From: a virus
Lineage: Duplodnaviria; Caudoviricetes
IMG/VR virus record: IMGVR_UViG_3300025084_002866
Location: 2,308 to 66,307 of that record
Length of the DNA stretch: 64,000 bases
Strand: one strand, 5' to 3'
In this document: positions 15,536 through 41,650 of the stretch, in pieces
Position numbering within the stretch: the first letter of the stretch is position 1
Layout of the letters: every line of letters begins with the position of its first letter
Notes under the pieces: generated by a model
The model's database searches: none
What the model saw: only the letters and a program-made list of their open reading frames with translations
Told to the model about the DNA's origin: nothing
Made by a program: the position numbers and the translations under genes

Positions 15536-15566
15536 CACCGACTAATTACGAGTTACATTGGATAAT
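15536..15566 (+). promoter_or_regulatory. Early repeat/promoter copy 1 (divergent)
   Basis: CACCGACTAATTACGA-GTTACATT-GGATAAT. Confidence 0.65.
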
Positions 15567-16170: not shown

Positions 16171-16215
16171 TAACTGAAATGGTTGCAAGTGAGATTCGAT
16201 TTCTCACTCAGTTAC
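16171..16215 (+). ncRNA. tRNA-like minihelix (acceptor stem plus T arm only)
   Basis: TAACTGA-AATGGTTGCAA-GTGAGA-TTCGATT-TCTCAC-TCAGTTA-C; no D or anticodon arm. Confidence 0.5.
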
Positions 16216-17395: not shown

Positions 17396-17575
17396 ATGAA
17401 AATGATAAATAGAAATAAAGAGTGGGATCATGCAGAAGACGAGAAGTCTTTACTAGCCACAGTAGGAATAGTAGTCAGAGAACTCACTATAAAGTGTCCT
17501 AATGACCAAGAACTTGGTAAAGAAGTAAGAGAACTAATACAAAAATACAAACTAAATACGAACACTAATGGATAA
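17396..17575 (+). CDS. Early hypothetical protein (59 aa)
   Basis: Read from sequence: MKMINRNKEWDHAEDEK...PNDQELGKEVRELIQKYKLNTNTNG; the C-terminus is encoded by repeat copy 5. Confidence 0.6.
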   Translation: MKMINRNKEWDHAEDEKSLLATVGIVVRELTIKCPNDQELGKEVRELIQKYKLNTNTNG

Positions 17576-17576
17576 T
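17546..17576 (+). promoter_or_regulatory. Early repeat/promoter copy 5
   Basis: TACAAACTAAATACGA-ACACTAAT-GGATAAT; ATG 7 nt after GATAAT. Confidence 0.8.
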
Positions 17577-17582
17577 AATAAT

Positions 17583-17726
17583 ATGAAAACAATCAAATTT
17601 TACAATAGCAATAGAGCACTCATCAAGTTAGATGGCAAGTTCTACAGAGGTTTAACTATAAATAATATACCAGACGACTATACAAGCTGGTTTAACTACA
17701 AAGGTCTTACTTACATAACAAGTTGA
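17583..17726 (+). CDS. Early hypothetical protein (47 aa), possibly leaderless
   Basis: Read from sequence: MKTIKFYNSNRALIKLDGKFYRGLTINNIPDDYTSWFNYKGLTYITS. Confidence 0.65.
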   Translation: MKTIKFYNSNRALIKLDGKFYRGLTINNIPDDYTSWFNYKGLTYITS

Positions 17727-17736
17727 CAAACAACTG

Positions 17737-17847
17737 ACGAATAAGCATTGTTAACGGGCATGAGTGTGATGCTGTAACTCGACCCAAAAACATACGAGCG
17801 TTAACAAGCTATAGCTCATACCTTAACCAGTATGGGCTTTTCGTGGT
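17737..17847 (+). ncRNA. Three-way-junction RNA/attenuator candidate, copy 1
   Basis: ACGAA-TAA-[TTGTTAACG...CGTTAACAA stem]-GCTCATAC-loop-GTATGGGC-TTTTCGTGGT, then ATG at 17848. Confidence 0.6.
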
Positions 17848-18288
17848 ATGAAATGTAACCACAATATTCCACAAGCAAGATTAGATCTTGGTTATACTGA
17901 GTGTGTTGATTGCTCAACAGTAGAAAAACTCGGTTGTATCGATACTATTCATCACAAAACAGGCAATACTATTCAAGTAATGTCACGTGAAGATGCAGAC
18001 AAAGCTAGTAAGCTCACTCAAAGAGCAGGCTTTGGCATACTAAGATCTATGACTGGTGGTTCAAGTCAACGTAAATCTAAAATAATACATGGTTGCTCAA
18101 CTACTCAAATCGGTAGTCAAGAAATGTACGAGCGCATAGGTGAAACTTACATGAATTATTATGAAGTTGACAAAGAAATTGCAAAGCGCTTTCTCGATCG
18201 AGCGCTAGACAACGCAGAAGTATCTCAATTACAATACCAAAAGATACAAATGATTTGTCACAAACTAAATACGATCACTATTGGATAA
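17848..18288 (+). CDS. Zn-finger protein with TraR/DksA-like N-terminus
   Basis: C.HNIPQARLDLGYTECVDC resembles the C..IP..RL.....C..C finger, with the first Cys pair incomplete. Confidence 0.55.
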   Translation: MKCNHNIPQARLDLGYTECVDCSTVEKLGCIDTIHHKTGNTIQVMSREDADKASKLTQRAGFGILRSMTGGSSQRKSKIIHGCSTTQIGSQEMYERIGETYMNYYEVDKEIAKRFLDRALDNAEVSQLQYQKIQMICHKLNTITIG

Positions 18289-18289
18289 T
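18259..18289 (+). promoter_or_regulatory. Early repeat/promoter copy 6
   Basis: CACAAACTAAATACGA-TCACTATT-GGATAAT. Confidence 0.8.
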
Positions 18290-18304
18290 ATATATAAATA
18301 ATAT

Positions 18305-18463
18305 ATGAACAAAATAACAAAACAACTCGAAAACTTGTACTCTTGGACAAAATTCTATCAAGATCGAGGTAATAAAGAAGCAATTAGAAAGTGTCAAACT
18401 GAAATAGCCCAGTTGAAAATGGCTTTTAACCAACTAAAATCTAACAAAAATGGCAAAAAGTAG
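18305..18463 (+). CDS. Early hypothetical protein (52 aa)
   Basis: Read from sequence: MNKITKQLENLYSWTKFYQDRGNKEAIRKCQTEIAQLKMAFNQLKSNKNGKK. Confidence 0.6.
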   Translation: MNKITKQLENLYSWTKFYQDRGNKEAIRKCQTEIAQLKMAFNQLKSNKNGKK

Positions 18464-18818
18464 AACGCTAAACGAAATTAGGCAATCAAAAGAGTATCAA
18501 CAAGCTGTTGAACTAAGTGATCAAGGCGGTAAATACACTGTACCAAGTAAAGGCGCAGATCCTGTACCTGTTAAAAATCCTTTTGAACATGAAATGGTAG
18601 GTAAAGCTGTTGAAAATATAGTAGCAAAGCTAACATCTGGTGAAATATTTGATTTAATATTTCAAGCAGTTTCTGATGAAATGAGTGAACACTACGTGTT
18701 TGACTCATCAGAATACTTAACTGAAGCAGGTTTAGAGCTATTTGAAGATGAATGGTTTGAATTCTATCAAGAACACCATGGAGATATATTGTATCAAGTA
18801 ATGCAAAACTTAAAATAA
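18450..18818 (+). CDS. Early hypothetical protein, acidic C-terminal half
   Basis: 122-aa ORF. Confidence 0.65.
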   Translation: MAKSRTLNEIRQSKEYQQAVELSDQGGKYTVPSKGADPVPVKNPFEHEMVGKAVENIVAKLTSGEIFDLIFQAVSDEMSEHYVFDSSEYLTEAGLELFEDEWFEFYQEHHGDILYQVMQNLK

Positions 18819-19015
18819 TGAAGAAATTTAACGGAATGGAGTCAAAACTTATAATTGACGCGCTTAACTACTATGTAGCACAAGTAGAAGAAGATATATT
18901 AGAAGCAGCAAAAGATGGTAAAATATCAATATTTGCACCTGGTTTTTATACTAATGTATCAAAAGAGTTAATAGATAAAGTAAAATCTATGACTAAAAAA
19001 CAAATTACAAACTAA
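18818..19015 (+). CDS. Early hypothetical protein
   Basis: 65 aa; its TAA stop lies inside repeat copy 7. Confidence 0.65.
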   Translation: MKKFNGMESKLIIDALNYYVAQVEEDILEAAKDGKISIFAPGFYTNVSKELIDKVKSMTKKQITN

Positions 19016-19036
19016 ATACGAACACTATAGGATAAT
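19006..19036 (+). promoter_or_regulatory. Early repeat/promoter copy 7
   Basis: TACAAACTAAATACGA-ACACTATA-GGATAAT; ATG 7 nt after GATAAT. Confidence 0.8.
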
Positions 19037-19042
19037 ATAAAT

Positions 19043-19261
19043 ATGATATACGACGATTTAAAACCACATATCAAAGCCAAAATGAAAGAAAATGCTAAAG
19101 AGTATAAATCTATCAACTGGTTATTTGATAAACTAAAACAAAAAGACTATTACTCTGACTTAACTATCGAAGAAATAAGATCTATCTGTACATTTGGTGA
19201 TGTATGGTATCACGATCTTACTCAAAGAGACATTATATGGGGTGATTGGTTAACAAAATAA
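19043..19261 (+). CDS. Early hypothetical protein, possibly leaderless
   Basis: 72-aa ORF starting at the predicted +1 of repeat copy 7. Confidence 0.65.
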   Translation: MIYDDLKPHIKAKMKENAKEYKSINWLFDKLKQKDYYSDLTIEEIRSICTFGDVWYHDLTQRDIIWGDWLTK

Positions 19262-19267
19262 ATAAAT

Positions 19268-19618
19268 ATGAACGAAGAAAAACTAGCAATAGAAACATTA
19301 AAAGCACTAGGTGCTAAAGATACATCAAGTCCATCTCAAACAAAAAGAGGTACAACTTGCTTTACATTACCAACAGGTAGATGTATATCTGAACACAAGT
19401 CAGGTTACATAAGAGTAAATTTACTAAACAAAAAAGGCAGTATTTACACCTGTTATCAGCTAAATCCACAATATAAAACTCCTTATAAAATGATTTGGCA
19501 AGATGGTAAGCTACACGAAGGCACTCATAATAGAAGAATGCTAATTTATAACAGAGCTGAAAGACTAAAAAGACTTGTATTATATGCAATTAAAGATATA
19601 AATCAAGCAAATGGATAA
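19268..19618 (+). CDS. Early hypothetical protein (basic)
   Basis: 116-aa ORF. Confidence 0.65.
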   Translation: MNEEKLAIETLKALGAKDTSSPSQTKRGTTCFTLPTGRCISEHKSGYIRVNLLNKKGSIYTCYQLNPQYKTPYKMIWQDGKLHEGTHNRRMLIYNRAERLKRLVLYAIKDINQANG

Positions 19619-19721
19619 AGAAAAAAAAGAACAAATCACTGATACAGTGTGGTTTATAGTAGCCCTTCTCGCCATAGGGCTGCTACAAATCTTAGCAATA
19701 TATGGCGTATTTGTAAAATAA
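19611..19721 (+). CDS. Small membrane protein (36 aa)
   Basis: Read from sequence: MDKEKKEQITDTVWFIVALLAIGLLQILAIYGVFVK. Confidence 0.55.
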   Translation: MDKEKKEQITDTVWFIVALLAIGLLQILAIYGVFVK

Positions 19722-19729
19722 ACTAAATT

Positions 19730-20167
19730 ATGATACTAACTGAAGAAAAAATGATTAAAATAGCTAAGAAATCTCTTGGCTTAACACTAACCGAAGATTT
19801 TAACGGTGCAGACATCTACTGCTATAATGAATCTACTGTAGATGGCTATGATGTATTTGTATTAACTCACGACACTACAAATATAAATATATGTGAAAAT
19901 ATATATTACTATGACTCTGACCTAGCATCTGCTATCATGGAAGAAATACAATACAACGGTGGTAGCGAAACAGTATTACACATAGATAGTTATCTATGGG
20001 ATGACATCTACATGGATGATCAAATGCTTGAATATTTCGGTGAAACTATAGACAGCATTATTGAAGATAATGATGAAGAAGGTTATGGCTTAACACCAGC
20101 TGAAGTACAAGAATTAAAAGAAGAATATGGCTTAGATGCCGAAGAAATTGAAGAAACTGTTAGTTAG
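19730..20167 (+). CDS. Highly acidic early protein (DNA-mimic candidate)
   Basis: 37 Asp/Glu against 5 Lys and 0 Arg in 145 aa. Confidence 0.7.
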   Translation: MILTEEKMIKIAKKSLGLTLTEDFNGADIYCYNESTVDGYDVFVLTHDTTNINICENIYYYDSDLASAIMEEIQYNGGSETVLHIDSYLWDDIYMDDQMLEYFGETIDSIIEDNDEEGYGLTPAEVQELKEEYGLDAEEIEETVS

Positions 20168-20185
20168 TTAATAGTAGTTTAGTTT

Positions 20186-20273
20186 CCACGAATAACGTGA
20201 AAAGTGTTCAGCAAATGCTAGAAACTTATTCACATGTCACGCTCGTACTCACAAGGTACGGGCTTTTCGTGGT
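20186..20273 (+). ncRNA. Three-way-junction RNA/attenuator candidate, copy 2
   Basis: CCACGAA-TAA-[variable stem]-GCTCGTAC-loop-GTACGGGC-TTTTCGTGGT, then ATG at 20274. Confidence 0.6.
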
Positions 20274-20474
20274 ATGAGAACATTTGAAAAATATAAACAA
20301 AACCTAAGACAACATGGTAATGAGATATGGTCTTATTCTACTCATGTTGCAACTATAATATACGATAAAGACTACCATAAATCACACCTAAAACAACTTG
20401 GCTGGTGGTCTGTTACTACACAGAAACACATTAACTACGCTGCTAAAGAACTAAACTTAGAACTAGTTAAATAA
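20274..20474 (+). CDS. Hypothetical phage protein (WSYSTHVATI motif)
   Basis: 66 aa; SY.T.VA...G.WS.TT.KH pattern seen in small phage proteins. Confidence 0.65.
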   Translation: MRTFEKYKQNLRQHGNEIWSYSTHVATIIYDKDYHKSHLKQLGWWSVTTQKHINYAAKELNLELVK

Positions 20475-20475
20475 T

Positions 20476-20488
20476 TACAAACTAAATA
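20476..20488 (+). repeat. Truncated early repeat (5' half only)
   Basis: TACAAACTAAATA without CGA-N8-GGATAAT. Confidence 0.5.
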
Positions 20489-20500
20489 AAAATTATAACT

Positions 20501-32662: not shown

Positions 32663-35600
32663 CTATCTAATTACTATTTTCTTTTTACCACTTTTAGCTT
32701 TAACTCCGGATCTTATTTTTATTTTTCTAGATTTAGGAGGTTGTATTTTTTCTTGATTTTTAATTTGCCAAGCTGGCCAACCTAATAATAAAGCTACAGC
32801 TTGCCAAGCTTCCGTATCAGCTTCAGCCGCGGCTTTTAAATTTTCTACTTTTCTATACATTCTATCTAAAGGAAAGTTTGTTGTAGCTGTTATAACTTTA
32901 GCTGCAGATTCATAAGCTGGATTATCTAAGCTAAATCCTTTTTCAAACACTTCTTCTTTTCGCTTTTTACTATCAAATGGATATGCAGCACTTTGAAACC
33001 TAGTTAATTTACTTTTTATTGAAGGTGAAAAATCTAACAATTTCTTATAAGCTTCTGAGTATTCAGGATTATCTTTTTTAGATCTATCATATATATCTAT
33101 ACCTAAATTCTTTATTACTTGCAGTGTTACTCCACCTAGTCCTAAGCCTCTTAGTTGAGAATCAATCATTCCATTAGCTACTTTAAATAACTTCTTATCC
33201 TTATCCTTATCACTTGCTTCTATTTGTTTAGTTGACATTTCGCTTTCATCGTCTCCAAAGCCTAATGCAAAAGCACCTTGCTGCAACCCATTAAACATCA
33301 TATTTTGTAAAAAACCGTAATAAGCTATTCTAGAAACTCTAATCCTGTTACTTTCAGCTAAAGTTTTGCCAGGTATTCTTCTTTTATTAGCAATGTCTTG
33401 AATATCTCTTTTTTGCATACGAGCATACTGCATAGGAGTATTAACGTATTGAAGAATAACCCTACCTAAATCAGTTGACTGTTGTTGGGATATTTTACTA
33501 GGATCAGAAGATTGCTGAGATAATTCAGAAACGTCTCTCCATTCTTTCATTGCTATTTCCTCAGCTTCTTTTTCTGTTTTGCCTTCTTTCTTGATTAGAT
33601 CTTTAATTCTATTTCTGTAAAACAAAGCTCCTCCAGAAGCTATAGCAAAGCTATCAGCATACTTAGTTGGTGCGTATCCTTTTTCTAAAATATAGTTTAA
33701 AGCTGCTTTTGCTTTGTTCTTAGAGGTTTTAGCTGCGTCAGCTATTTCAGATTCGTTTATATTAAGCTTAAGCCCATTACGTCTATCTTTTAAATAGTCT
33801 GAATTTATTAGCTTTGTAAAATCTTTCCAATATTGAGGTTGATTTGCAAATGCTGCACCTGCTTTAGCTGGGTTGTTAAAACTCCAATTAATGTAATTAG
33901 CAGAAGATATTGTTTGCAATAAAGCTGATCTTGTATTTAAAAACATTGTAACTGCTGTAGAGTTGTTTATGTAATCTAAAACATCATTACTTAATTTATT
34001 TCCACCTGAAACTCTATTGCTACCAGAATTCATTCTAGTTAAAGAGTTTTCCAAAGCTAACCTATATTTTTTACCATAAGCAGCTTCTAACTTATTTAAA
34101 TTATCTTTAGAAAATATAAGATCTTTGTTTTGATTAAAATCTTGTAAATACTTACTTCTTTTATCTGTATTTAATAAATCCATTAAATCAGTGGTTATAG
34201 TTCCTACAGCCCAGTTTTTACCAGGTTTAGAGTAACCGTCACCTTTTGTTATACTTAAAATTTGATCTGCAAAAGCTTGTAGTTTTGGGCTTTCAGATAC
34301 TATATCATTTAACTCTTTTAAATCTGTTTTAGAAATACCAGGTATTTCTTGACCTGTTTTGTTCCAAAGATACGTTCTTACAGCTTGCTCATTTGTAAAC
34401 CCTGACTCTGTTTTAAGTCTTAAGTCTTTAGGAACATCTAGCTGCTTTTTTAAAGCTTTAAAATCATCCATTAGATTAACTCTGTCAGTAGATAGATTTT
34501 CCATAGCTCTACTATATGGATTTAATAAATTGTCTTGGTAAAACTTCATGTGAGCCTCTCCCTTTTTACCTTTTCCTAGAGTAGTATATAATAAACCAGT
34601 GAAATCTTCAGCAGATGGAGGTATAAAAAACTTTTGTTTTCTTGCTTTATTACCTCTAATTTCTGCTTTTATATCAGAAAAAACTTTTTCAGCTCCAATT
34701 CCTGTAGATTCTTCTATGTTTTTATTAAACTCAGCTGATAAGTCTTGAGAAGCATATGCTTGTTGAGTTTTTGATTTAACATCTAAAACTTCTAAAGCGT
34801 CTCTAACTGCTTTAACATTTTGAGGCGCATCATCTGCAAAGTAAAAATCATTATAACCTTCAGCTGCTTTGTTAACTAGCCAATCAGCTTTAGCCTCACC
34901 TGTAGAATTACCTAATCCAGTTATATTTTCTAAAGGTATTTCAATACCCATAACATCTAAAAACTCTTTAATAGCTGGAGCAGATTCAGGAGCTCTAGCA
35001 GTTAATATAAACATATCTCTATCGCCTGCTGATTCTTTAATCTTTTTCATCAGTTCAAACAAAGGTCCTTTCTTACCTTCAACAACTCTATTAAAGTCGG
35101 AAAAATCCATTTTCCAACCAGCATCAACTAGCCCCTTGCCTTGCTTAGCAAATTCTTCAGCTGTTAAAACTTTTCTTTCACCATCTTTTTCAGCGAAAAC
35201 TTTACTATTTGTTCTAGCAACTGTATCATCAAAGTCAAATACTCTAGCTTTTTTCACTGTCTTGTTTCTAACTCTAGCATTAGATATAGCTTTGTCCCTA
35301 GTCTTCAATGTATTTACAACTTGAGTTTGATTTAAATCTTTACTAGACATAGAAGCTTCTTTAAGAACTTCTACATTATTTTTAACTACCTCTGTTCTAG
35401 GATATTCTATTTGTTGTTCTACTTCTACTTTTGCTTTACTTGGTGGAAATTTAGTAAGAATATTTTCAGCTTCTTTTTTACCATATCTTTTTAATAATAT
35501 TTTAGCAATTGTATTTACATTTTTACCAGAAAAATCACGTAAAGATAAAGTTCTTGAAGGAGATCCTGGATTCAAAAAAGTAGTTAATAATTCGTCATTA

Positions 35601-38600
35601 ATTATAGGATCTATTGAACCACCAGTTCCTCCGTATTTAGGATCATCCTTTACTGCTCTATCAGCATCAGAAGTTAAAGATTGTGAAACACTATTGGTAA
35701 TATTTTCTAGTTCTTTCATGAACTTTTTATTTCCAATTTTATTTTTAGATTTTAAAAGTAAATTAACAAATTCTGTATTATATATAAATAAGTCTTTATT
35801 ATGCTCATTATGAAATCTTTTACCTCCAGGTCTTGTAGCTTCTCCAATTAAAGATAGATACTCCATAGGTGCAAGACCTTTAATTATACCTGTGGCTTGA
35901 CCTGTTTGTATTTGAAGAAAAGTTATTATATCTTCTAATGTTTCTTTTGTAGGGCTTTCTTTATAAACTTCTGATAGTTTTTCGTAAGTATACTTTATAG
36001 CTTCTCTATTAGCATCCATAGTTCTTTCATAAGCATCAGGTAATAATTTACCATTAGCATCCACTAATTTAGGATTGCTTAATTGATCTCTACCAAAAGA
36101 AGTTAAATAACTTTTATACTGCTCTCCTTGAGAAGATTCCCAAAGAGGAAACCTAACCTTAGCAGCTTCAATTTCTTTTTCCCATTTTTTCTTAAAACCT
36201 GTTTCGCTATAGTTAACCATGAAAACATCATCCATAAAATCTAGTCTTTCACCTTTGCTTTCAATTTTACCAAACACATCTTTAAATTCAGCTATACCAA
36301 AGTATTCAGCATCTCCTTTTTTTCCTTTATATTTTTTAAGACCAAAAGTTTTCAACGAACCTTCTCCAAAAGTATTTCTTACATACTTTGAAAAATTATC
36401 ATTTTCTAATAATTCAGGAAACTTTTTAAGAATTTTATTAAAACTTTTTATAGTTCTATCTCTATTTTCTGCACTAGTTACGTTTTTACTTCTAGTACCA
36501 GGGGCTATTGGTTGTAAATCTTTAAAGCCAGATAGCTTTCTTAAACCAGGTAATGCTTTGCTCCATCTAGATATGCTTAGCTCTTCTTCTTTTTCTATTT
36601 CTTCAAGAGTCATGTCCTCTCGTCTAGCTTGTTTCTCTCTTTCAATTTTTATTTTTGGATCAACTACAAATTTTTGCAAGTGGCTAACTACAGCTTTCTT
36701 TTGTTCGTCAGTAGTAGTAAGAGACAATTTAGTAATAAAGTCACTAGCGTTTCTTTGAGCAGCTAGAGCTTTAATATCTTTTGGTGTTAATTTTTCTCCT
36801 GAATTTAATTTCTCAACTACTTCTTCTAAAAAATCTACATCGTTTAAACTCATGGAAGCTAAGTTTTCAGACTTACCAGATTTTAAATCTTCTATTTCGT
36901 TAGCTGTTAATTCTTTTATTTTTCTTATCTGAGCGTTAGTTACAGCTTTTCCATCTTGATGTATTAATGCTTTTATTCTTTGATCAATCTTTCCGTTTTC
37001 TTTTAAAGTTTCAAAAGAACCATCTTCTTTTATACCAAAATATTCTAGAAATTTACTTCTATTAAATGGTAGTTTTTCTTGACCTTTTAATCCTGCTCCT
37101 GTACTTACCCTATCTCCTTGTTTGTAAAAAGCGTCTAATAAAACTTTTTGAACGCCAGTAGAAGTTTCTTTTAAAGATTCTTTAGCTGTCTTAGTGGTTT
37201 TACCATCAGGTAAAAGTTGATAAAGCATTTCAGCATTATCTACAATATACTGTTGAGCGGAAGTCACTTCTTTCTGAGATAATCTAGTTGAGGTTTTACC
37301 TTTAAAAGTTCCATCTTCATTATTAATTTTACCGTCTTTAACTCCAAAATCTTTACTTATGTTAGATAAGTCAGGAGTTGTTTTATAACTTTCTATAATT
37401 AAATTTGAATCTTCAATTCTATTATCTAAAAGCCTAGCTGATGCTTCTGGCTCTTGCAACACTGTGGTAACATCAAGTTTTCCTGTAGCTGGATCAATAA
37501 ATTTTTCCGGTATAGAACTAACGTCTCCACTGGTACTAAAAGTTTGATCAACAAGATTTTCTAAACCTCCTGATTCTCCGTCCCCTAAGTCTGACTCACT
37601 AATCTCTCTATCAAATGATCCTACTTTTTTTAATGTATTTACAACCTGTTTTGTGAATCCCATGTTTAAATAAGCGCCAACATCGTTTTTATTAGCGTCG
37701 TATCTCTCAGCGTATTCATAGAGTTTTAATTGTAATTCAAAAGCAGCTTCTTCTTTTATATCTTTTGACAATTTAAATCCAGTAATTGTTTCATATTTAT
37801 TTAATGAATTATATATTAAATTTTTATTATTGTCAACTATTTGATCTCTTTGTTTTCTATTCGGTTTACCGTCTGGATTTTTAAGTATTTCAGCTCTTAA
37901 TTTTCTATTATCTTCAACTATTTCTTTTGTAGTTTTCTTAACTACTGTACCTTCTAAATCTAAAGAAGATTTAATTTCTTTTTCAATATTAGCTTTATCA
38001 GCTTTTCTATTAGCTTCTGCATTACTTAAGTTATCTATATCAACATCTGGAATACTTTTTTTATCGGTAAAACCCATAAGCTCAGATACAAGACTTTCAG
38101 CTCCTCCTTGTCCTCTAATTCCTTTCCTAGATAATATACCTATATTTTCAACTACATCTTTAGCTGTTTTAGGTAATGGACTTTTTACTCCAGTTTGAAT
38201 TAATATGTCTTTAATTTCTAACTTTATTTCATTTAAAAGACTAGAAGCCAAGGCAGGATTTGTATAATAAGCTTCTGGACTACTTAAATACTCACCCATA
38301 AAAGATAAATATTCTTCTGCTAATAATTTTTTACCTTCTGGAGCGTTTGTATTTATATTATATTTATCTATAATTCTTTGTTCTAATTCTTTACCACTAA
38401 ACTCTCCAAACTGGTAATCATAAAATTGAGACATACCGTCTTTTGCTAAATTTTCAAGCGCTGCTGGATTTTTTTTATAGTACTCTTTTTGAAGTAAATG
38501 AGTTAACTCATGTATTTCTTTTCCTGGCGTATAAAGATCCATGTCTATAGTTATAGTGTTTGTATTAGGATCAAACTCAGCAGTAGATTTACTTTTTCTA

Positions 38601-41600
38601 AAATTATTTTTTCTAAATCTAGCTCCTCTACCAACCACAACGTTGACGCCTTTAAAATCTGGACTAAATGCTTGTATGCCCTTAACCCAAGGATCTACGT
38701 ATCTTTTTGTAAGATTGTTTTTAAAAGCTTCAACTTCTTTTTTATATTCTTTTACTGTTTCAGGATTTGTGCTTTCAAACTTTTCTCTACTTGGTGGAGT
38801 TAGTTCTACATAAGCTATTTCATATTGTATTAAGTTTTGTAACTCATTTACACCAGATGTTAAGTTTTCTACTTGTTCTTTTTCTTTAGGGCTAAGATCC
38901 TTAAGATCTCTTAGTAATCCAGGAGCTTCTTTTTCTCCATTAATCAGTCTAGTCGGTCCTCTTCTAACATCTTCTATCCTCTTATTAAGCTTATTTCTTA
39001 ACTCTATCTTTTTACTTGTAGGAATAACATCGTTCCCTTTAAGACCCATAGCTCCAAATCCGGAAAATATACCAGTTTGAACCATAATTCTTTCTTCAAG
39101 AGGACCTAACTTTCCATAAAGTTCCTCTATTGAAGTTTCAAAATTTTTCTCTCCTCTTATACTTGCAGAAACAGCACTAACTGCACTTGCGACTTCTGAA
39201 GACACAGCTCCTAATGGCCCAGATGCTATTAGTTTTTGAAAAACAGGTTGAAGAGCTCTATAGTTTTTACCCCATTTTATTGTTGTTCTACCAAGAGATC
39301 CAACACTAAAGAAAACAGCGCCAGTTCCGTACTCAGCATCTAAAGCTATTTGCATTTGTATATCTTCAACAATAGCACCCATTACAAACTTCTTAATACC
39401 TTTCAAGCCGTTATAATACTTTTTCCAACCTAAAGCGTTTAAAGCTTGTCCACCACCCATTAGTAAAGGCATTTCTGGAATGAAACTACCAATACCTTGA
39501 GCTATTTGATTACTTACAGATACTTTTACAGCTTCTTTTTGCTCTGGTGTTAATTCTATTTCAACACCTGACAATGACTTTACTTCATAAGCACTTGTTA
39601 CTATAGCTGAGTTTATAGCAGCTATTCTGTCTTGGGGTGACATTCCTTTTGAATATACAATATTTTTAGCTTCTTTGTCATTATATCCAAACTTTTCTAA
39701 AGTACTTACGAATGTAGAAGTTGCAAGAGTCTTTAAAAAACCATCTTTCTCTATAGCTGATATGTCTACGTTCCCAGCATACATGCTCCAATAAGCATTA
39801 GCTAAGGTTTCTACTTCATCATATTCTTCGTTATATATTTTAATAGCTTCAACATCTTGCTTGCTAGCCATGTTAAGCATTTCGTCAAAAAAGCCCTCAA
39901 AATCTCTTTGATCTATTCCTAATTGTCTCAACTTAAGTAAAGATATTTCTACTTCACCATTTTTATCAACATTGATACCAGCAGTTCTAAGATTATTTTT
40001 TAAAGTAGTATAACCACTTTCAAAGCCTGAAGGAATTTTTAATTTTATTTTAGACTCACTTCCTTGCTTACGCAATGTCTGTAAATTTATTATTTCTTTA
40101 TTGAATATATTACCAATAGCTTCTCTTTGAGTAAGTAAAGGATTAGACTCTTGTTCTGATTTTATTGAATCTTCAATTCCAGATTGTGCATCATCAGCTA
40201 TGTTAATCAACTTATCTATACTTGCTTCAGAAAAACCTCTATCGTTAAAAAAGTTTTTAGTTAATTCTCCGGCTGTAGTTTTAACTTCTACTGAACCAAA
40301 GTCCTCACCAAACCTACCTGGTATATTGGTTGTTGTTGTAGCATTCTCTTCTCTTTGAAGCTGTAGTACTTGATAATTACTTTGCTTATTAAACAACTGT
40401 AAATCTAAAGCTTTTAATTCATTCTTTTTAGCTTCTTCATCATATTCAATTGTTAACTCTTTCTTATTAACTTGATCAATTTTATTTTGTAATATGTTTA
40501 TATCTTTTGATATATCACCTTGCTTAATACTTAACTCTTGGTTTTTTAATTCTTGCTGTGTTAATTTAGAATTAAAATTACTTATTGTTTTACTTTTAAA
40601 ATCTTCATCAACTTCTATACTTGAAAGACTTATGGATCTATTTTCGTCATACTCTTGCTCTATAAAAACTTTATTTTCTGCCATTAAGTTATTATACATG
40701 TTGTCAAAAGAGCTTTTATATATACCTATCTCAGTATTAGTTCTTAACTCATCAATTAATTTTGCTTTAATTTGATCATGGTTTTCCGCGGTTAAAGTAA
40801 ACTTTTCTTTACCTGGTGTATTTTCATTACCAATACCATATTTCCAAGGGTTTCTAAAGGCATCTTTTTGTAATATATCTAACTCTGTTATTAAACTAAC
40901 CGCTTGTTCTTTGCTAGGATTTACAGCATCACCCGCACCTTTAAAATCACCTGTTGGCTTCTCGCCAACTGGTCTTATTTTTGGTTGATCATCATATGTG
41001 CCAATTTTTATTGACCTAATTCCATCTAGTCCAACTTCGCCAGTTGCTTTATATATTAAGTTAGACTCTTCGTTAAACTCAGGATTATCGTTTATAAAGT
41101 TAATAAAGCTATTGTATGCTTTTTTACTCTCACTTAGTGCATCTTCTTCTATTAAACCTTCTTGACCTATAGGTATGTTAACATCTCCACTACTTCTTCT
41201 ACTCTTAGTATTATATATAGTTCCTAGCTTTATAGTTTCATTTGTTCCAGTCTCTTTATTTATAACAGTAAAGCTATCACTACCTGGCTCAACTTGTTTG
41301 AAAACAAAATTAGGATATAAAGAATTTAGTTCAGGTACTATTTTTTCTTCACTTTTTAATTTAAAGTCTTCAAAAGATATTTTAACGTCAACGTCTTCTA
41401 TAGGTGGTATTTTAATAATATCCTTGTGTCTTTCTAAATACTCATCTATACTTAATCCATCTACATCTGCAGCTTCTTGTATTTTATCGGTAGTAAAAGA
41501 AGCACCTTTATACTTATATTTTACAGGTTCTTTTTCAACAGTATCTTCCTCTGTCTCAACTTCAATATTGTTTTTTTCTTCTGAATTAACACCCACTTCC

Positions 41601-41650
41601 TCAACTATTTCTTCAGTTGGTGTATTTTCACTAAGTACTTCTTCAATCAT
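32663..41650 (-). CDS. Giant virion (probably ejected) polyvalent protein
   Basis: 2995 aa, last gene of the structural arm; contains HELTH zincin motif, a sigma-region-2-like segment and a complete HAD domain. Confidence 0.8.
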   Translation of the reverse strand: MIEEVLSENTPTEEIVEEVGVNSEEKNNIEVETEEDTVEKEPVKYKYKGASFTTDKIQEAADVDGLSIDEYLERHKDIIKIPPIEDVDVKISFEDFKLKSEEKIVPELNSLYPNFVFKQVEPGSDSFTVINKETGTNETIKLGTIYNTKSRRSSGDVNIPIGQEGLIEEDALSESKKAYNSFINFINDNPEFNEESNLIYKATGEVGLDGIRSIKIGTYDDQPKIRPVGEKPTGDFKGAGDAVNPSKEQAVSLITELDILQKDAFRNPWKYGIGNENTPGKEKFTLTAENHDQIKAKLIDELRTNTEIGIYKSSFDNMYNNLMAENKVFIEQEYDENRSISLSSIEVDEDFKSKTISNFNSKLTQQELKNQELSIKQGDISKDINILQNKIDQVNKKELTIEYDEEAKKNELKALDLQLFNKQSNYQVLQLQREENATTTTNIPGRFGEDFGSVEVKTTAGELTKNFFNDRGFSEASIDKLINIADDAQSGIEDSIKSEQESNPLLTQREAIGNIFNKEIINLQTLRKQGSESKIKLKIPSGFESGYTTLKNNLRTAGINVDKNGEVEISLLKLRQLGIDQRDFEGFFDEMLNMASKQDVEAIKIYNEEYDEVETLANAYWSMYAGNVDISAIEKDGFLKTLATSTFVSTLEKFGYNDKEAKNIVYSKGMSPQDRIAAINSAIVTSAYEVKSLSGVEIELTPEQKEAVKVSVSNQIAQGIGSFIPEMPLLMGGGQALNALGWKKYYNGLKGIKKFVMGAIVEDIQMQIALDAEYGTGAVFFSVGSLGRTTIKWGKNYRALQPVFQKLIASGPLGAVSSEVASAVSAVSASIRGEKNFETSIEELYGKLGPLEERIMVQTGIFSGFGAMGLKGNDVIPTSKKIELRNKLNKRIEDVRRGPTRLINGEKEAPGLLRDLKDLSPKEKEQVENLTSGVNELQNLIQYEIAYVELTPPSREKFESTNPETVKEYKKEVEAFKNNLTKRYVDPWVKGIQAFSPDFKGVNVVVGRGARFRKNNFRKSKSTAEFDPNTNTITIDMDLYTPGKEIHELTHLLQKEYYKKNPAALENLAKDGMSQFYDYQFGEFSGKELEQRIIDKYNINTNAPEGKKLLAEEYLSFMGEYLSSPEAYYTNPALASSLLNEIKLEIKDILIQTGVKSPLPKTAKDVVENIGILSRKGIRGQGGAESLVSELMGFTDKKSIPDVDIDNLSNAEANRKADKANIEKEIKSSLDLEGTVVKKTTKEIVEDNRKLRAEILKNPDGKPNRKQRDQIVDNNKNLIYNSLNKYETITGFKLSKDIKEEAAFELQLKLYEYAERYDANKNDVGAYLNMGFTKQVVNTLKKVGSFDREISESDLGDGESGGLENLVDQTFSTSGDVSSIPEKFIDPATGKLDVTTVLQEPEASARLLDNRIEDSNLIIESYKTTPDLSNISKDFGVKDGKINNEDGTFKGKTSTRLSQKEVTSAQQYIVDNAEMLYQLLPDGKTTKTAKESLKETSTGVQKVLLDAFYKQGDRVSTGAGLKGQEKLPFNRSKFLEYFGIKEDGSFETLKENGKIDQRIKALIHQDGKAVTNAQIRKIKELTANEIEDLKSGKSENLASMSLNDVDFLEEVVEKLNSGEKLTPKDIKALAAQRNASDFITKLSLTTTDEQKKAVVSHLQKFVVDPKIKIEREKQARREDMTLEEIEKEEELSISRWSKALPGLRKLSGFKDLQPIAPGTRSKNVTSAENRDRTIKSFNKILKKFPELLENDNFSKYVRNTFGEGSLKTFGLKKYKGKKGDAEYFGIAEFKDVFGKIESKGERLDFMDDVFMVNYSETGFKKKWEKEIEAAKVRFPLWESSQGEQYKSYLTSFGRDQLSNPKLVDANGKLLPDAYERTMDANREAIKYTYEKLSEVYKESPTKETLEDIITFLQIQTGQATGIIKGLAPMEYLSLIGEATRPGGKRFHNEHNKDLFIYNTEFVNLLLKSKNKIGNKKFMKELENITNSVSQSLTSDADRAVKDDPKYGGTGGSIDPIINDELLTTFLNPGSPSRTLSLRDFSGKNVNTIAKILLKRYGKKEAENILTKFPPSKAKVEVEQQIEYPRTEVVKNNVEVLKEASMSSKDLNQTQVVNTLKTRDKAISNARVRNKTVKKARVFDFDDTVARTNSKVFAEKDGERKVLTAEEFAKQGKGLVDAGWKMDFSDFNRVVEGKKGPLFELMKKIKESAGDRDMFILTARAPESAPAIKEFLDVMGIEIPLENITGLGNSTGEAKADWLVNKAAEGYNDFYFADDAPQNVKAVRDALEVLDVKSKTQQAYASQDLSAEFNKNIEESTGIGAEKVFSDIKAEIRGNKARKQKFFIPPSAEDFTGLLYTTLGKGKKGEAHMKFYQDNLLNPYSRAMENLSTDRVNLMDDFKALKKQLDVPKDLRLKTESGFTNEQAVRTYLWNKTGQEIPGISKTDLKELNDIVSESPKLQAFADQILSITKGDGYSKPGKNWAVGTITTDLMDLLNTDKRSKYLQDFNQNKDLIFSKDNLNKLEAAYGKKYRLALENSLTRMNSGSNRVSGGNKLSNDVLDYINNSTAVTMFLNTRSALLQTISSANYINWSFNNPAKAGAAFANQPQYWKDFTKLINSDYLKDRRNGLKLNINESEIADAAKTSKNKAKAALNYILEKGYAPTKYADSFAIASGGALFYRNRIKDLIKKEGKTEKEAEEIAMKEWRDVSELSQQSSDPSKISQQQSTDLGRVILQYVNTPMQYARMQKRDIQDIANKRRIPGKTLAESNRIRVSRIAYYGFLQNMMFNGLQQGAFALGFGDDESEMSTKQIEASDKDKDKKLFKVANGMIDSQLRGLGLGGVTLQVIKNLGIDIYDRSKKDNPEYSEAYKKLLDFSPSIKSKLTRFQSAAYPFDSKKRKEEVFEKGFSLDNPAYESAAKVITATTNFPLDRMYRKVENLKAAAEADTEAWQAVALLLGWPAWQIKNQEKIQPPKSRKIKIRSGVKAKSGKKKIVIR

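Follow-up and report, generated by a model that had tools for sequence, protein, structure and literature searches.

The early polycistronic RNA of phage T7 carries RNase III sites (R0.3-R1.3), at which cleavage leaves the upstream message with a protective hairpin. REP and BIME sequences of enterobacteria are transcribed within mRNAs, where they form barriers to 3' exonucleases and can attenuate; REPs reside on chromosomes in either orientation, and RAYT transposases move them. Punctuation by tRNAs and processing at tRNA-like structures are familiar from mitochondrial transcripts, the MALAT1 mascRNA and the tRNA-miRNA units of gammaherpesvirus 68. In T4-like phages, PeSLs (promoter-early stem-loops) are composite terminator/promoter motifs that mediate the shuffling of gene cassettes (PMC4122927, PMC2839356).

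Here we describe S1, the name we give to a structured RNA cassette found between early genes of a tailed virus (Caudoviricetes) and analysed in a stretch of 64,000 nucleotides, the window, which covers positions 2,308 to 66,307 of IMG/VR record IMGVR_UViG_3300025084_002866. S1 shares with PeSLs the character of a short, highly conserved stem-loop repeated in the early hyperplastic region (PMC2839356, PMC4122927); both stand at the borders of small, variable early genes and mark where the cassettes of related phages differ. Unlike a PeSL, S1 contains no promoter and usually adjoins the next start codon, and it possesses a second, covarying closing helix and exchangeable structured inserts. A composite of terminator and early promoter was rejected as a description of S1, no promoter repeat being found inside it; the closer PeSL look-alike is a terminator-like hairpin followed by a promoter repeat, present in relatives. 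Like REP/BIME sequences, S1 is a conserved imperfect palindrome in which a mismatch or wobble is fixed, confined to intergenic positions and arranged singly or in clusters, but it is carried by phages and runs nearly always with transcription, and no transposase was seen with it among the window proteins scanned.

The likeness to T7 RNase III sites lies in related copies between the cistrons of an early polycistronic RNA and in the order of lower stem, internal loop and upper stem; the minimal form of S1 is predicted to fold into just such a pair of coaxial helices separated by an internal loop. The helices of S1 are shorter, however (5-9 bp plus 8-9 bp), and its internal loop accommodates inserts of 30-130 nt. 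Like tRNA-like signals, including the tmRNA domain (RF00023), S1 is a closed helix whose 3' strand ends right before the AUG, with a closing stem, an insert on the 5' side and a hairpin on the 3' side, and genuine tRNA-like domains of relatives occupy its junction and bear its module. Since S1 lacks a T-loop, a D-loop analogue, a discriminator-CCA and any match to a tRNA or tmRNA model, this likeness is one of position and topology only. Intrinsic terminators and attenuators also present a G+C-rich hairpin followed by U residues on the coding strand, but in S1 there are only 3-4 U, these are partly paired, the downstream strand covaries, and the position is mostly within an operon and before an ORF.

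Results

Occurrence of S1

S1 occurs twice in the window, at 17735-17847 and 20186-20273, where the original prediction had placed a two-copy element, and an exact 17-mer, GGGCTTTTCGTGGTATG, is common to both copies (two matches in 0 of 100 shuffles). The whole 66.3-kb virus record holds these two copies and no more. The features of copy 1 and its neighbours are as follows.

17548-17580, plus strand: early promoter-like repeat, ACAAACTAAATACGA-N8-GGATAATA (sequence)
17584-17726, plus strand: upstream gene of 47 aa (MKTIKFY...KGLTYITS*; sequence)
17735-17741, plus strand: 5' strand of the closing helix, UGACGAA (sequence, RNAfold)
17745-17809, plus strand: insert, "module a" (gapless alignment A3)
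17814-17837, plus strand: frame hairpin, GCUCAUAC, loop CUUAACCA, GUAUGGGC, of A-U type with U.G at pair 3 (sequence, RNAfold)
17838-17847, plus strand: tail UUUUCGUGGU, in which UUCGUGG is the 3' strand of the closing helix, followed by one U and then the ATG at 17848 (17-mer common with copy 2)
17848-18288, plus strand: downstream early zinc-finger gene (C..CxxC..HKTGN) of 146 aa, marker of the phage group (homologues in IMG/VR)

Copy 2 is arranged in the same order.

19730-20167, plus strand: upstream gene of 145 aa, acidic, with C-terminus ..EETVS* kept in relatives
20160-20185, plus strand: string of stop codons in all three frames, TTAGTTAGTTAATAGTAGTTTAGTTT (sequence)
20186-20192, plus strand: 5' strand of the closing helix, CCACGAA (RNAfold)
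20197-20233, plus strand: insert, a 37-nt imperfect stem-loop unrelated to module a (RNAfold)
20241-20263, plus strand: frame hairpin, GCUCGUAC(U), loop, (G)GUACGGGC, of G-C type (sequence, RNAfold)
20264-20273, plus strand: tail UUUUCGUGGU, with the 3' strand of the closing helix at 20266-20272 and the ATG at 20274 (sequence, RNAfold, 17-mer)
20274-20474, plus strand: downstream gene of 66 aa (MRTFEKYK...; sequence)

At least ~170 further instances are present in related podophages, at no fewer than four different gene junctions and nearly always on the coding strand; the lineage that hosts S1 is an abundant group of uncultured marine podophages of Flavobacteriia. A search of bacterial genomes did not find it. 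The original prediction had not recognised the family, and Rfam likewise returned no match for the whole window at the gathering score, nothing relevant for 17500-20500 at E<=10, and nothing relevant for six related loci at E<=1. S1 is thus missing from Rfam yet common at sea, a metagenome scan having located it on at least 120 contigs, while the zinc-finger marker gene has 251 relatives on IMG/VR contigs. Tandem clusters occur among relatives, including arrays of 2-3 units without ORFs in three of them (L046, L438, L428). One inverted pair was seen. Metagenome contig ends do not pile up at the borders of S1; as the contigs are assemblies, presumably of DNA, this is uninformative either way.

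Fold and conservation of the frame

RNAfold predicts a three-way junction for both window copies (z-scores -2.8 and -4.8), and for copy 1 the better fold is that of the plus strand. The constant part, or frame, comprises a 5-9-bp closing helix and an 8-9-bp hairpin, with 1-4 U linking the two on the 3' side. As originally proposed, ACGAA closes the element, pairing with UUCGU at 17840-17844 in copy 1 and extending to the 7 bp of CCACGAA/UUCGUGG in copy 2; at the copy 1 site, relatives have TGACGAA, CGCGAA or CACGA(A) as the 5' strand. The frame hairpin is GCUCRUAC/GUAYGGGC, and it shows compensatory and G·U-only changes, as does the closing helix. Pair 5 of the hairpin is A-U in 65 instances, G-C in 102 and G.U in one, and pair 3 is U.G, replaced once by C-G, so that the compensatory switch and the plus-strand wobble noticed in the two window copies hold in relatives as well. 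With the 3' arm alone fixed as query, the 5' arm was fully paired in 151 of 153 instances, and the other arm variants are all G.U-compatible on the plus strand save for one mismatch in L420.

In the closing helix, pair 2 is C-G at site B (the site of copy 2), U.G in L348 and U-A at site C, and pair 1 changes from C-G to A-U in L051. In 45% of instances the motif CCACG lies no more than 120 nt upstream; the figure is 3% on the downstream side and 1-8% for control 5-mers, and a complementary 5' strand of some kind accompanies 127 of 139 instances. The original prediction had named a lack of covariation in homologues as one ground for its refutation, and there both the hairpin and the closing helix covary. 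Because the one-sided changes are compatible with G.U pairing on the plus strand and are accompanied by compensatory pairs, selection acts on the plus-strand fold. Within one site, stems and tail are 100% identical compared with 76-82% at adjacent third codon positions, and GTGG is followed by TA in every tallied instance; the stems and tail of S1 are under purifying selection.

Two smaller elements of the original description were not retained in relatives, namely the TAA after ACGAA and a constant "UUUU" after the hairpin. The U-run, which is part of the closing helix, has 4 U, 3 U at site C, or, in L020 and L065, the form UAUU, whose A pairs with the 5' strand and so lengthens the closing helix to 9 bp. 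Since the run is shortened or interrupted where the helix gains, these residues are no less a part of the closing helix than of a terminator. The 7-9 nt past them are invariant and covary with the upstream strand, and in either tail variant 10 nt separate the hairpin from the ATG.

Exchangeable inserts and module a

The middle stem had been thought to keep its structure without its sequence, within a conserved three-way junction. It proves instead to be an optional insert with no conserved arm; it is missing from minimal forms in five relatives (L009, L017, L039, L005, L036), and the junction strands vary freely. The minimal form consists of 5 bp, an internal loop of 2x3 nt and a 10-bp upper stem (8-9 bp elsewhere), with a predicted energy of -21.8 kcal/mol. 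As these forms do without the middle stem, an aptamer or catalytic core at the junction is excluded; of the cis-regulatory RNA first proposed, plus-strand structure acting in cis at gene boundaries stands, whereas a conserved three-way-junction family does not.

Where an insert is present, it is one of about ten unrelated modules, placed at the 5' junction or in the hairpin loop, and in some relatives inserts are nested inside inserts. The insert of copy 2 has related forms with extra insertions in L034 and L418. Module a, the insert of copy 1, is formed by a closing stem (17745-17756 with 17799-17809) enclosing two hairpins, GGCAU/AUGCU with loop GAGUGUG and CUCG/CGAG with a 13-nt loop. Across the ten instances of alignment A3, which is gapless and draws on four contexts, its 16 pairs are 97.5% paired, nine of them are changed on both sides, and the loops are invariant; 0 of 500 shuffles reach the score. 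Module a is also contained in the tRNA-like part of tmRNA-like domains in L182 and L186, and identical modules are borne by three to four kinds of frame: the S1 junction, the S1 loop, the apex of a terminator-like hairpin and the tmRNA-like domain. Empty frames are common and equally conserved, so the frame must have a role without cargo.

Gene junctions

Sites without S1 read TAAtATG or TAATG and filled ones TAA-[S1]-tATG; S1 is inserted between a stop codon and the TATG that follows. The stop codon of the 47-aa gene upstream of copy 1 touches or overlaps the start of the next gene in most relatives, and empty sites there are TAAtATG (for example in L195). The foot of the closing helix stands one U before the ATG in both window copies, the abutment first described, and it does so because S1 was inserted in the tight TAA|tATG junction typical of these phages. 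The ATGs after the two copies are genuine: homologues of the 146-aa protein encoded after copy 1 have the same MKC... N-terminus in relatives without S1; this protein matches in PHROG only a family of unknown function.

An ATG follows S1 directly in 43 of 59 and in 88 of 119 instances (about 74%), before at least ten unrelated gene families and with no promoter repeat between, and on these counts a unit-final terminator position was rejected. A promoter repeat follows in only ~4 of 59; where no ORF comes next, S1 is succeeded by a further S1, a convergent gene or a promoter repeat. Relatives also have classical terminator-like hairpins (ATACGAG..CUCGUUUUAUUU), and these, by comparison, are followed by a promoter repeat in 9 of 9 examples. 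The position of S1 is intercistronic, not unit-final, in most instances. More copies of the promoter-like repeat lie near 15536, 15745, 16218, 16836, 18261, 19008 and 20649, and both window copies of S1 fall inside promoter-to-promoter units with no repeat between S1 and the next ATG.

At sites A, C and D the 5' strand of the helix begins 0-8 nt past the upstream stop codon or overlaps the last codons (CTACGAA encodes ..Tyr-Glu, and TAA follows). At site B, copy 2 included, the upstream stop is 21 nt ahead of the helix; the stop string TTAGTTAGTTAATAGTAGTTTAGTTT takes in the TAG of the upstream gene at 20165-20167 and is kept in all site-B relatives, every one of which bears S1. To judge from its sequence, we count this three-frame string as probable protection of S1 from ribosomes. 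The slot after site B, filled by the 66-aa gene in the window, holds at least six alternative genes, or none, across relatives, and is bounded by S1 and the next promoter repeat. The hairpin of copy 2 is the best terminator-like site of the early block, and the hosts have no Shine-Dalgarno pairing that might aid a start near the helix.

Site A is polymorphic for the presence of S1, and no decayed intermediates were seen. Comparison of filled and empty sites revealed neither target-site duplication nor a shared flanking word, and no transposase was found among the window proteins scanned, which represent part of the ORFs; S1 thus shows none of these marks of a mobile palindrome of REP or MITE type.

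tRNA-like elements at the same junctions

The junction that follows the zinc-finger gene is occupied in L186 by a tmRNA-like tRNA-like domain (RF00023, E 2e-10) that holds module a, with an ATG 4 nt downstream, and in six other relatives by S1 instead (L012, L030, L016, L043, L005, L045). Both L182 and L186 match RF00023 at junctions where others bear S1. A related structure occurs in the window itself.

16171-16215, plus strand: minihelix resembling the top half of a tRNA, with a 7-bp acceptor-like stem, a 6-bp stem and the loop UUCGAUU (fold)

This minihelix has no match in Rfam; its type is found also in L183 and L182 and bears modules in relatives, and it is a sister type of closing frame. 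S1 itself was considered as a tRNA-like or tmRNA domain and rejected, its loop being variable and open to inserts, its helices separated by 1-4 U and its 3' end being UA.

Discussion

The design of S1 is unusual: an almost invariant RNA frame hosts unrelated structured modules, even nested ones, and at the same gene junctions its place can be taken by tRNA-like or tmRNA-like frames. Both the frame and module a are ready candidates for new RNA families, and they offer a natural insulator and scaffold part for Bacteroidota genetics. The combination of fixed frame, swappable insert and tRNA-like stand-ins makes the marking and insulation of message boundaries the most likely function, ahead of a riboswitch or ribozyme. 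We give a probability of roughly 40% to S1 being a punctuation and insulation cassette at the RNA level, which also bears cargo modules and operates through leaky termination and/or processing together with 3'-end protection.

We infer each functional step of this reading. S1 would act in cis on early polycistronic RNA. Its stable hairpin and short U-run would cause polymerase to pause or partially terminate, and the hairpin would stop 3' exonucleases, fixing and protecting the end of the upstream message. In RNA that reads through, the closing helix would seal the fold and any cargo as a separate domain, which a structure-specific host RNase may excise, as for the tRNA-like elements at the same junctions, although with 15-17 bp in two stacked helices S1 is short for a classical RNase III site; the next cistron would then start at the foot of the helix or one nucleotide past it. 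The constancy of the frame and its place at the borders of variable slots would further make it a portable recombination point. In favour of this reading we count the plus-strand fold and its purifying selection, the insertion at tight junctions, the intercistronic position, the tRNA-like domain of L186 as a positional analogue, the stops ahead of site B and an end-of-unit use of S1 at the convergent junction of L462; the ORF-less tandem arrays of 2-3 units fit a small-RNA gene at least as well. Near-total invariance exceeds what a mere barrier or terminator needs and points to a specific partner, be it protein, RNase or recombination. Were punctuation and insulation indeed its function, S1 would show how a Bacteroidota phage separates and starts its early messages in hosts without Shine-Dalgarno-led initiation.

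A regulated attenuator or translational coupling switch, the original prediction's own reading, in which hairpin and U residues terminate and the closing helix hides the next start until a ribosome or phage factor opens it, is a tenable though unlikely alternative. It would accord with the strength of the hairpin as the top terminator-like site of the early block, with an ATG 1-2 nt from the helix in hosts that give it no Shine-Dalgarno help, with the constant 10-nt spacing in both tail variants, and with a helix at sites A, C and D within reach of the terminating ribosome, S1 standing in for a coupled junction of TAATG type. This alternative is hard to reconcile with site B, where the stop is 21 nt off and all-frame stops exclude ribosomes, with U-runs that are 3 U or broken in some lineages, with instances that lack a downstream ORF, and with the want of a conserved antiterminator pairing or, in minimal forms, of any switch partner. 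The ligand-controlled variant, with exclusive folds, was rejected because the middle domain is missing or unrelated and the alternative pairing is not conserved. A ribozyme or ligand riboswitch built on the three-way junction, a shape that both window copies do adopt in prediction, is close to refuted: the junction is optional, minimal forms are simple interrupted hairpins, junction strands vary freely, and Rfam has no match even at E up to 10. Very improbable, too, is an ordinary intrinsic terminator with flanking complementarity. The G+C-rich 8-9-bp stem followed by UUUU would suit one, and the same stem followed by 6-7 T occurs, as a plain terminator-like site, in five phage contigs without similarity to window proteins (L049, L055, L066, L054, L062), but about 74% of instances directly precede a conserved ORF without a promoter, the 7-9 nt past the U residues are invariant and covary upstream, and the run is cut short or broken where the closing helix improves.

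S1 might alternatively be selfish or recombinational DNA of PeSL or REP kind, providing portable homology for cassette swapping or moving as a palindrome, with a fold that merely renders insertion harmless. We consider this possible but rather doubtful. A near-identical frame at four or more non-homologous junctions, nested inserts, tandem clusters and an inverted pair, the polymorphism of site A without decayed intermediates, the six or more alternative genes (or none) after site B and absence from bacterial genomes would all be expected of such DNA, for which T4-like PeSLs offer a shuffling precedent (PMC4122927, PMC2839356). Against it stand plus-strand-only G.U changes with true compensatory pairs (bar the L420 mismatch), an orientation that follows transcription, and the lack of any target-site duplication, common target word or transposase among the window proteins scanned; it is in any case compatible with an RNA function and may be additive to it. 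A small stable RNA gene, its frame, like the tRNA-like frames of relatives, a scaffold for maturation and stability and its modules early trans-acting agents that might decoy or regulate host factors, seems improbable when empty frames are frequent and equally conserved and no mimicry of host RNA emerged (the hairpin pattern gave 9 matches against 8 for the control in 401 Bacteroidia genomes). Its attractions are modules that are themselves structured and conserved (module a with nine covarying pairs and invariant loops), their carriage on three to four kinds of frame, and the early-region location; if cargo is indeed the point, the modules would form a new pool of phage small RNAs.

The scheme of "punctuation and display", which would join the preferred punctuation and insulation to such cargo, is speculative and on balance doubtful: interchangeable frames would be cut from early transcripts by host RNases to yield near-leaderless messages of the following gene, in a host that does not use Shine-Dalgarno initiation, and stable small RNAs with swappable, trans-acting modules. 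The proposal that these frames comprise S1, the tRNA top-half minihelices, the 106-nt tmRNA-like domain and the long terminator hairpins is equally conjectural, as is the suggestion that the modules might target host machinery such as ribosome rescue or defence proteins.

Results and Discussion

Genomic setting and fold of the two copies

The virus record represents a complete uncultured virus of ~33% G+C, whose terminase shares 45% identity with the terminases of Flavobacterium, Cellulophaga, Tenacibaculum and Maribacter podophages. Its plus-strand block at 15.8-32.4 kb begins with small early genes and continues with replication genes. Eight promoter-like repeats split the early part into units, and each window copy of the structured RNA element S1 lies within one of them:

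15536, 15745, 16218, 16836, 17548, 18261, 19008 and 20649 (+): promoter-like repeat, ACAAACTAAATACGA-N8-GGATAATA, eight copies
17735-17847 (+): S1 copy 1, at the junction of a 47-aa gene and the zinc-finger gene (site A)
17745-17809 (+): insert of copy 1 (module a)
17848-18288 (+): zinc-finger gene
20186-20273 (+): S1 copy 2 (site B)
copy 1 unit (+): repeat 17548, 47-aa gene, copy 1, zinc-finger gene, repeat 18261
copy 2 unit (+): repeat 19008, four genes, copy 2, two small genes, repeat 20649

Because both copies sit inside such units, no promoter separates either of them from the adjoining ATG. The repeat has a core similar to T7-group promoters (ATACGA..CACTATAGG); no single-subunit RNA polymerase is recognisable in the window. 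A 2995-aa protein at 32663-41650 (-) is without Pfam or PDB sequence match and without an RNA polymerase signature, its sole match being a polynucleotide-kinase-like stretch at residues 2124-2326 (PHROG 415). This protein had raised the suspicion that S1 is an N4-like hairpin promoter, which we rejected: no polymerase domain is detectable, the loops are variable at 5-8 nt, and the wobble pairs suit the non-template strand only.

The sequence of the two copies agrees with the original prediction in both place and description. They have in common the exact 17-mer GGGCTTTTCGTGGTATG, of which neither the window nor the entire 66.3-kb record contains a third copy, and no shuffled sequence had two matches. 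RNAfold returned the proposed fold for both, that is, a closing helix, a middle stem-loop and a hairpin GCUCRUAC/GUAYGGGC, with z-scores of -2.8 and -4.8 for copies 1 and 2 and with unrelated middle stem-loops. The original reader recognised no family, and Rfam, searched at curated and permissive thresholds with the window and ten related loci, likewise gave nothing for S1. ARAGORN reported no tRNA or tmRNA in the window or in contigs L182-L186. A hammerhead ribozyme was discarded: CUGACGA in copy 1 resembles its core but is absent from copy 2 and from relatives.

Pairing and covariation of the frame

Exact-pattern scans of IMG/VR, anchored on various parts of S1 or on the stop-codon string that precedes copy 2, found 59 distinct instances in contigs of related phages, and a metagenome scan found at least 119 more; instances are related by descent, so these counts are not of independent events. 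The frame, comprising closing helix and hairpin, reads CCACGA(A), an optional insert, (U)AGCUCRUAC, a loop or insert, GUAYGGGC, U(1-4), UUCGUGG and UA. Pairs were tallied by scripted, register-fixed counts. Where the search fixed the 3' arm only, the 5' arm of the hairpin was fully paired in 151 of 153 instances. Among the matches listed, hairpin pair 5 was A-U in 65, G-C in 102 and G.U in one, pair 3 changed once from U.G to C-G, and four other one-sided changes each gave G.U on the plus strand; the compensatory change and plus-strand wobble first seen in the two copies thus hold among relatives. In the closing helix, pair 2 varies from C-G (site B) through U.G (L348) to U-A (CUACGAA/UUCGUAG; site C, another junction), pair 1 becomes A-U in L051, and the variants CCGCG, CGCGAA and UUAUGAA permit wobbles on the plus strand only. 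The 'U-run' of L020 and L065 carries a U-to-A change whose pairing with GAAUA extends the closing helix to 9 bp. Lack of covariation in homologs had been named as grounds for abandoning the proposal; closing helix and hairpin both covary.

Some complementary 5' strand for the closing helix is present in 127 of 139 instances. With G.U tolerated, control helices were equally long in this A/T-rich DNA, and a Watson-Crick 5-mer test was used instead: the 120 nt upstream contained the complement CCACG in 45% of instances, and the downstream side in 3% (control words, 1-8%). Stems and tail are 100% identical within one site, against 76-82% at adjacent third codon positions. Since portions of the motif were fixed in several scans, the invariance of these portions is partly ascertainment, mitigated by the free-arm test and by unbiased stop-string-anchored and protein-anchored samples. 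From arm pairing, covariation, complement enrichment and within-site identity we conclude, on comparative grounds, that the S1 fold is real, belongs to the plus strand and is selected for sequence as well as pairing.

The middle stem is exchangeable cargo

The middle stem had been proposed as an arm that keeps its structure without sequence conservation. This did not survive comparison: eight contigs (L009, L017, L039, L005, L036, L033, L034 and L019) carry a minimal S1 that lacks it and folds as an interrupted hairpin (-21.8 kcal/mol), and other instances hold one of ~10 unrelated inserts, which occupies the 5' junction or the loop of the hairpin or is nested within another insert. By this comparison, the middle stem is cargo outside the frame. 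Module a is itself structured: across ten instances aligned without gaps, its 16 pairs are 97.5% paired, nine having changed on both sides, its loops are invariant, and its score was reached by none of 500 shuffles. It extends to more distant members of the phage group and occurs in three contexts:

beside the S1 frame: L005, L036, L045, L020, L046
inside a tRNA-top-half frame: L183
inside a 106-nt tmRNA-like RNA: L182:3729-3834 (-) and L186:5069-5174 (-)

Only the tRNA-like domain of the 106-nt RNA matches Rfam RF00023, with scores under the 47-bit cut-off (L182, E 5e-13, 40 bits; L186, E 2e-10, 34 bits), and these are the sole meaningful Rfam matches among the loci searched. The RNA shows G3.U70, A73 and a canonical T-arm, with module a in place of the ~294-nt messenger part; it may be a phage mini-tmRNA. 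In L186 it lies just 3' of the zinc-finger gene, the spot occupied by S1 in L012, L030, L016, L043, L005 and L045, and an ATG follows within 4 nt. Two further modules are common to S1 and to long terminator-like hairpins of relatives.

Position and distribution

An unbiased, protein-anchored sample of 80 of the 251 zinc-finger gene relatives confined S1 to the closest relatives. Most others join the 47-aa gene to its zinc-finger neighbour through TAATG or TAAtATG, or give the latter a promoter repeat of its own. With S1 present (filled sites), the junction is TAA-[S1]-tATG, and likewise 3' of the zinc-finger gene. By this comparison S1 represents an insertion at a closely spaced gene junction, which explains why its closing helix ends beside the ATG, as originally observed; the ATG is a true start, since the N-terminus is identical with and without S1. 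Neither target duplication nor a common target word was seen between filled and empty sites.

S1 occupies at least four non-homologous gene junctions, co-oriented with its neighbours in every inspected instance. An ATG follows directly in 43 of 59 IMG/VR instances and in 88 of 119 among the metagenome matches listed, these ATGs belonging to at least ten unrelated gene families. In the remaining instances S1 precedes TAG-ATG, a short leader rich in A, a promoter repeat, a further S1 unit or, in L462, a convergent gene. The slot between site B and the next promoter repeat holds at least six alternative genes, or none. Whereas S1 and the tRNA-like frames may have a gene directly 3', a promoter repeat came after the terminator-like hairpins ATACGAG..CUCGUUUUAUUU in 9/9 examples seen; some of these hairpins share modules with S1.

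Those hairpins (ATACGAG-stem-module-stem-CUCGUUUUAUUU) lie 3' of the zinc-finger gene in L208, L223, L227, L248, L253, L258, L267, L231 and L244 (about 1200-1330). The zinc-finger protein has 146 aa in the window and 69-70 aa in most of the 251 relatives; short forms end in GYGTMLR and a stop, after which comes S1, a terminator-like hairpin or a tRNA-like element, and the window gene continues through this junction.

None of the cultured phages searched has S1. In bacterial genomes, 105 matches to the 17-mer were at chance level; three were genuine, each a short phage fragment that had been binned into a MAG. Host-RNA mimicry by the hairpin found no support in 401 Bacteroidia genomes (9 matches, 8 for controls). 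Metagenome contig ends, which do not inform on RNA ends, showed no pile-up at S1 borders. L049, L055, L066, L054 and L062 were set aside as plain-terminator look-alikes with no protein similarity to the window.

Possible functions

The reading that accounts for most features, to which we give a probability of roughly 0.4, is that S1 serves as a punctuation and insulation cassette. The hairpin with its few U's would cause pausing or leaky termination and shield the upstream message from 3' exonucleases; the closing helix would seal the fold and any cargo as a separate domain, at whose foot the next cistron begins. Genuine tRNA-like domains are substrates of RNase P/Z and replace S1 in relatives, which makes excision of the S1 domain by a structure-specific RNase plausible. 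Stops in all three frames before site B would fit a fold that ribosomes must not traverse. A simple terminator fits poorly, because genes come next with no promoter between, the downstream strand covaries with one lying upstream and the run of U's is cut short or broken; a riboswitch or ribozyme is a still poorer match, the junction being optional and variable.

Regulated attenuation or coupling is rather unlikely: sites A, C and D (the latter two being junctions in relatives) favour it, since a terminating ribosome could reach the 5' strand there, but site B does not. Recombination or mobility in the manner of PeSL or REP elements, likewise rather unlikely, would explain why the sequence is invariant, why S1 is present in some phages and absent from others, and why the slots vary; it may well act alongside an RNA role. 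The conserved modules and ORF-free arrays suggest a scaffold for trans-acting small RNAs, a reading that seems quite improbable.

Tandem arrays of two or three S1 units with modules between and no ORFs occur in L046, L438, L428, L418 and L421, and in L462:780-1159 two oppositely oriented units flank a small gene on the minus strand. The stop-codon string at 20160-20185 (+), ahead of copy 2, is conserved; similar strings precede plain terminators in other phage contigs (L084, L087, L096, L118).

Comparison with known systems

Near comparators include REP elements of enterobacteria, RNase III sites in the early region of T7 and tRNA punctuation. By its sequence features S1 does not qualify as a tRNA-like domain, riboswitch, ribozyme or simple terminator, and we place it among the structured intercistronic cassettes of phage early regions. 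The nearest described are PeSL, the terminator/promoter cassettes of T4-like phages (PMC2839356, PMC4122927), to whose definition S1 corresponds in part only, because it has no promoter. Unusual in S1 are its invariant frame, its nested swappable RNA modules and its interchange with tRNA-like and tmRNA-like frames.

Two further tRNA-like structures were observed. At window 16171-16215 (+), directly preceding a promoter repeat, is a minihelix resembling a tRNA top half, with a 7-bp acceptor-like stem, a 6-bp stem, a UUCGAUU loop and the linker AAUGGUUGCAA, similar to the D-loop analogue of tmRNA; the minihelix folds as such, gave no match in an Rfam search, and its frame type carries modules in L183 and L182. 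A further frame, GGUGUG .. GCAGGUUCGAUUCCUGC CACACC ACUA, at L184:285-480 (+), encloses a ~40-nt unit in duplicate; module a lies just outside.
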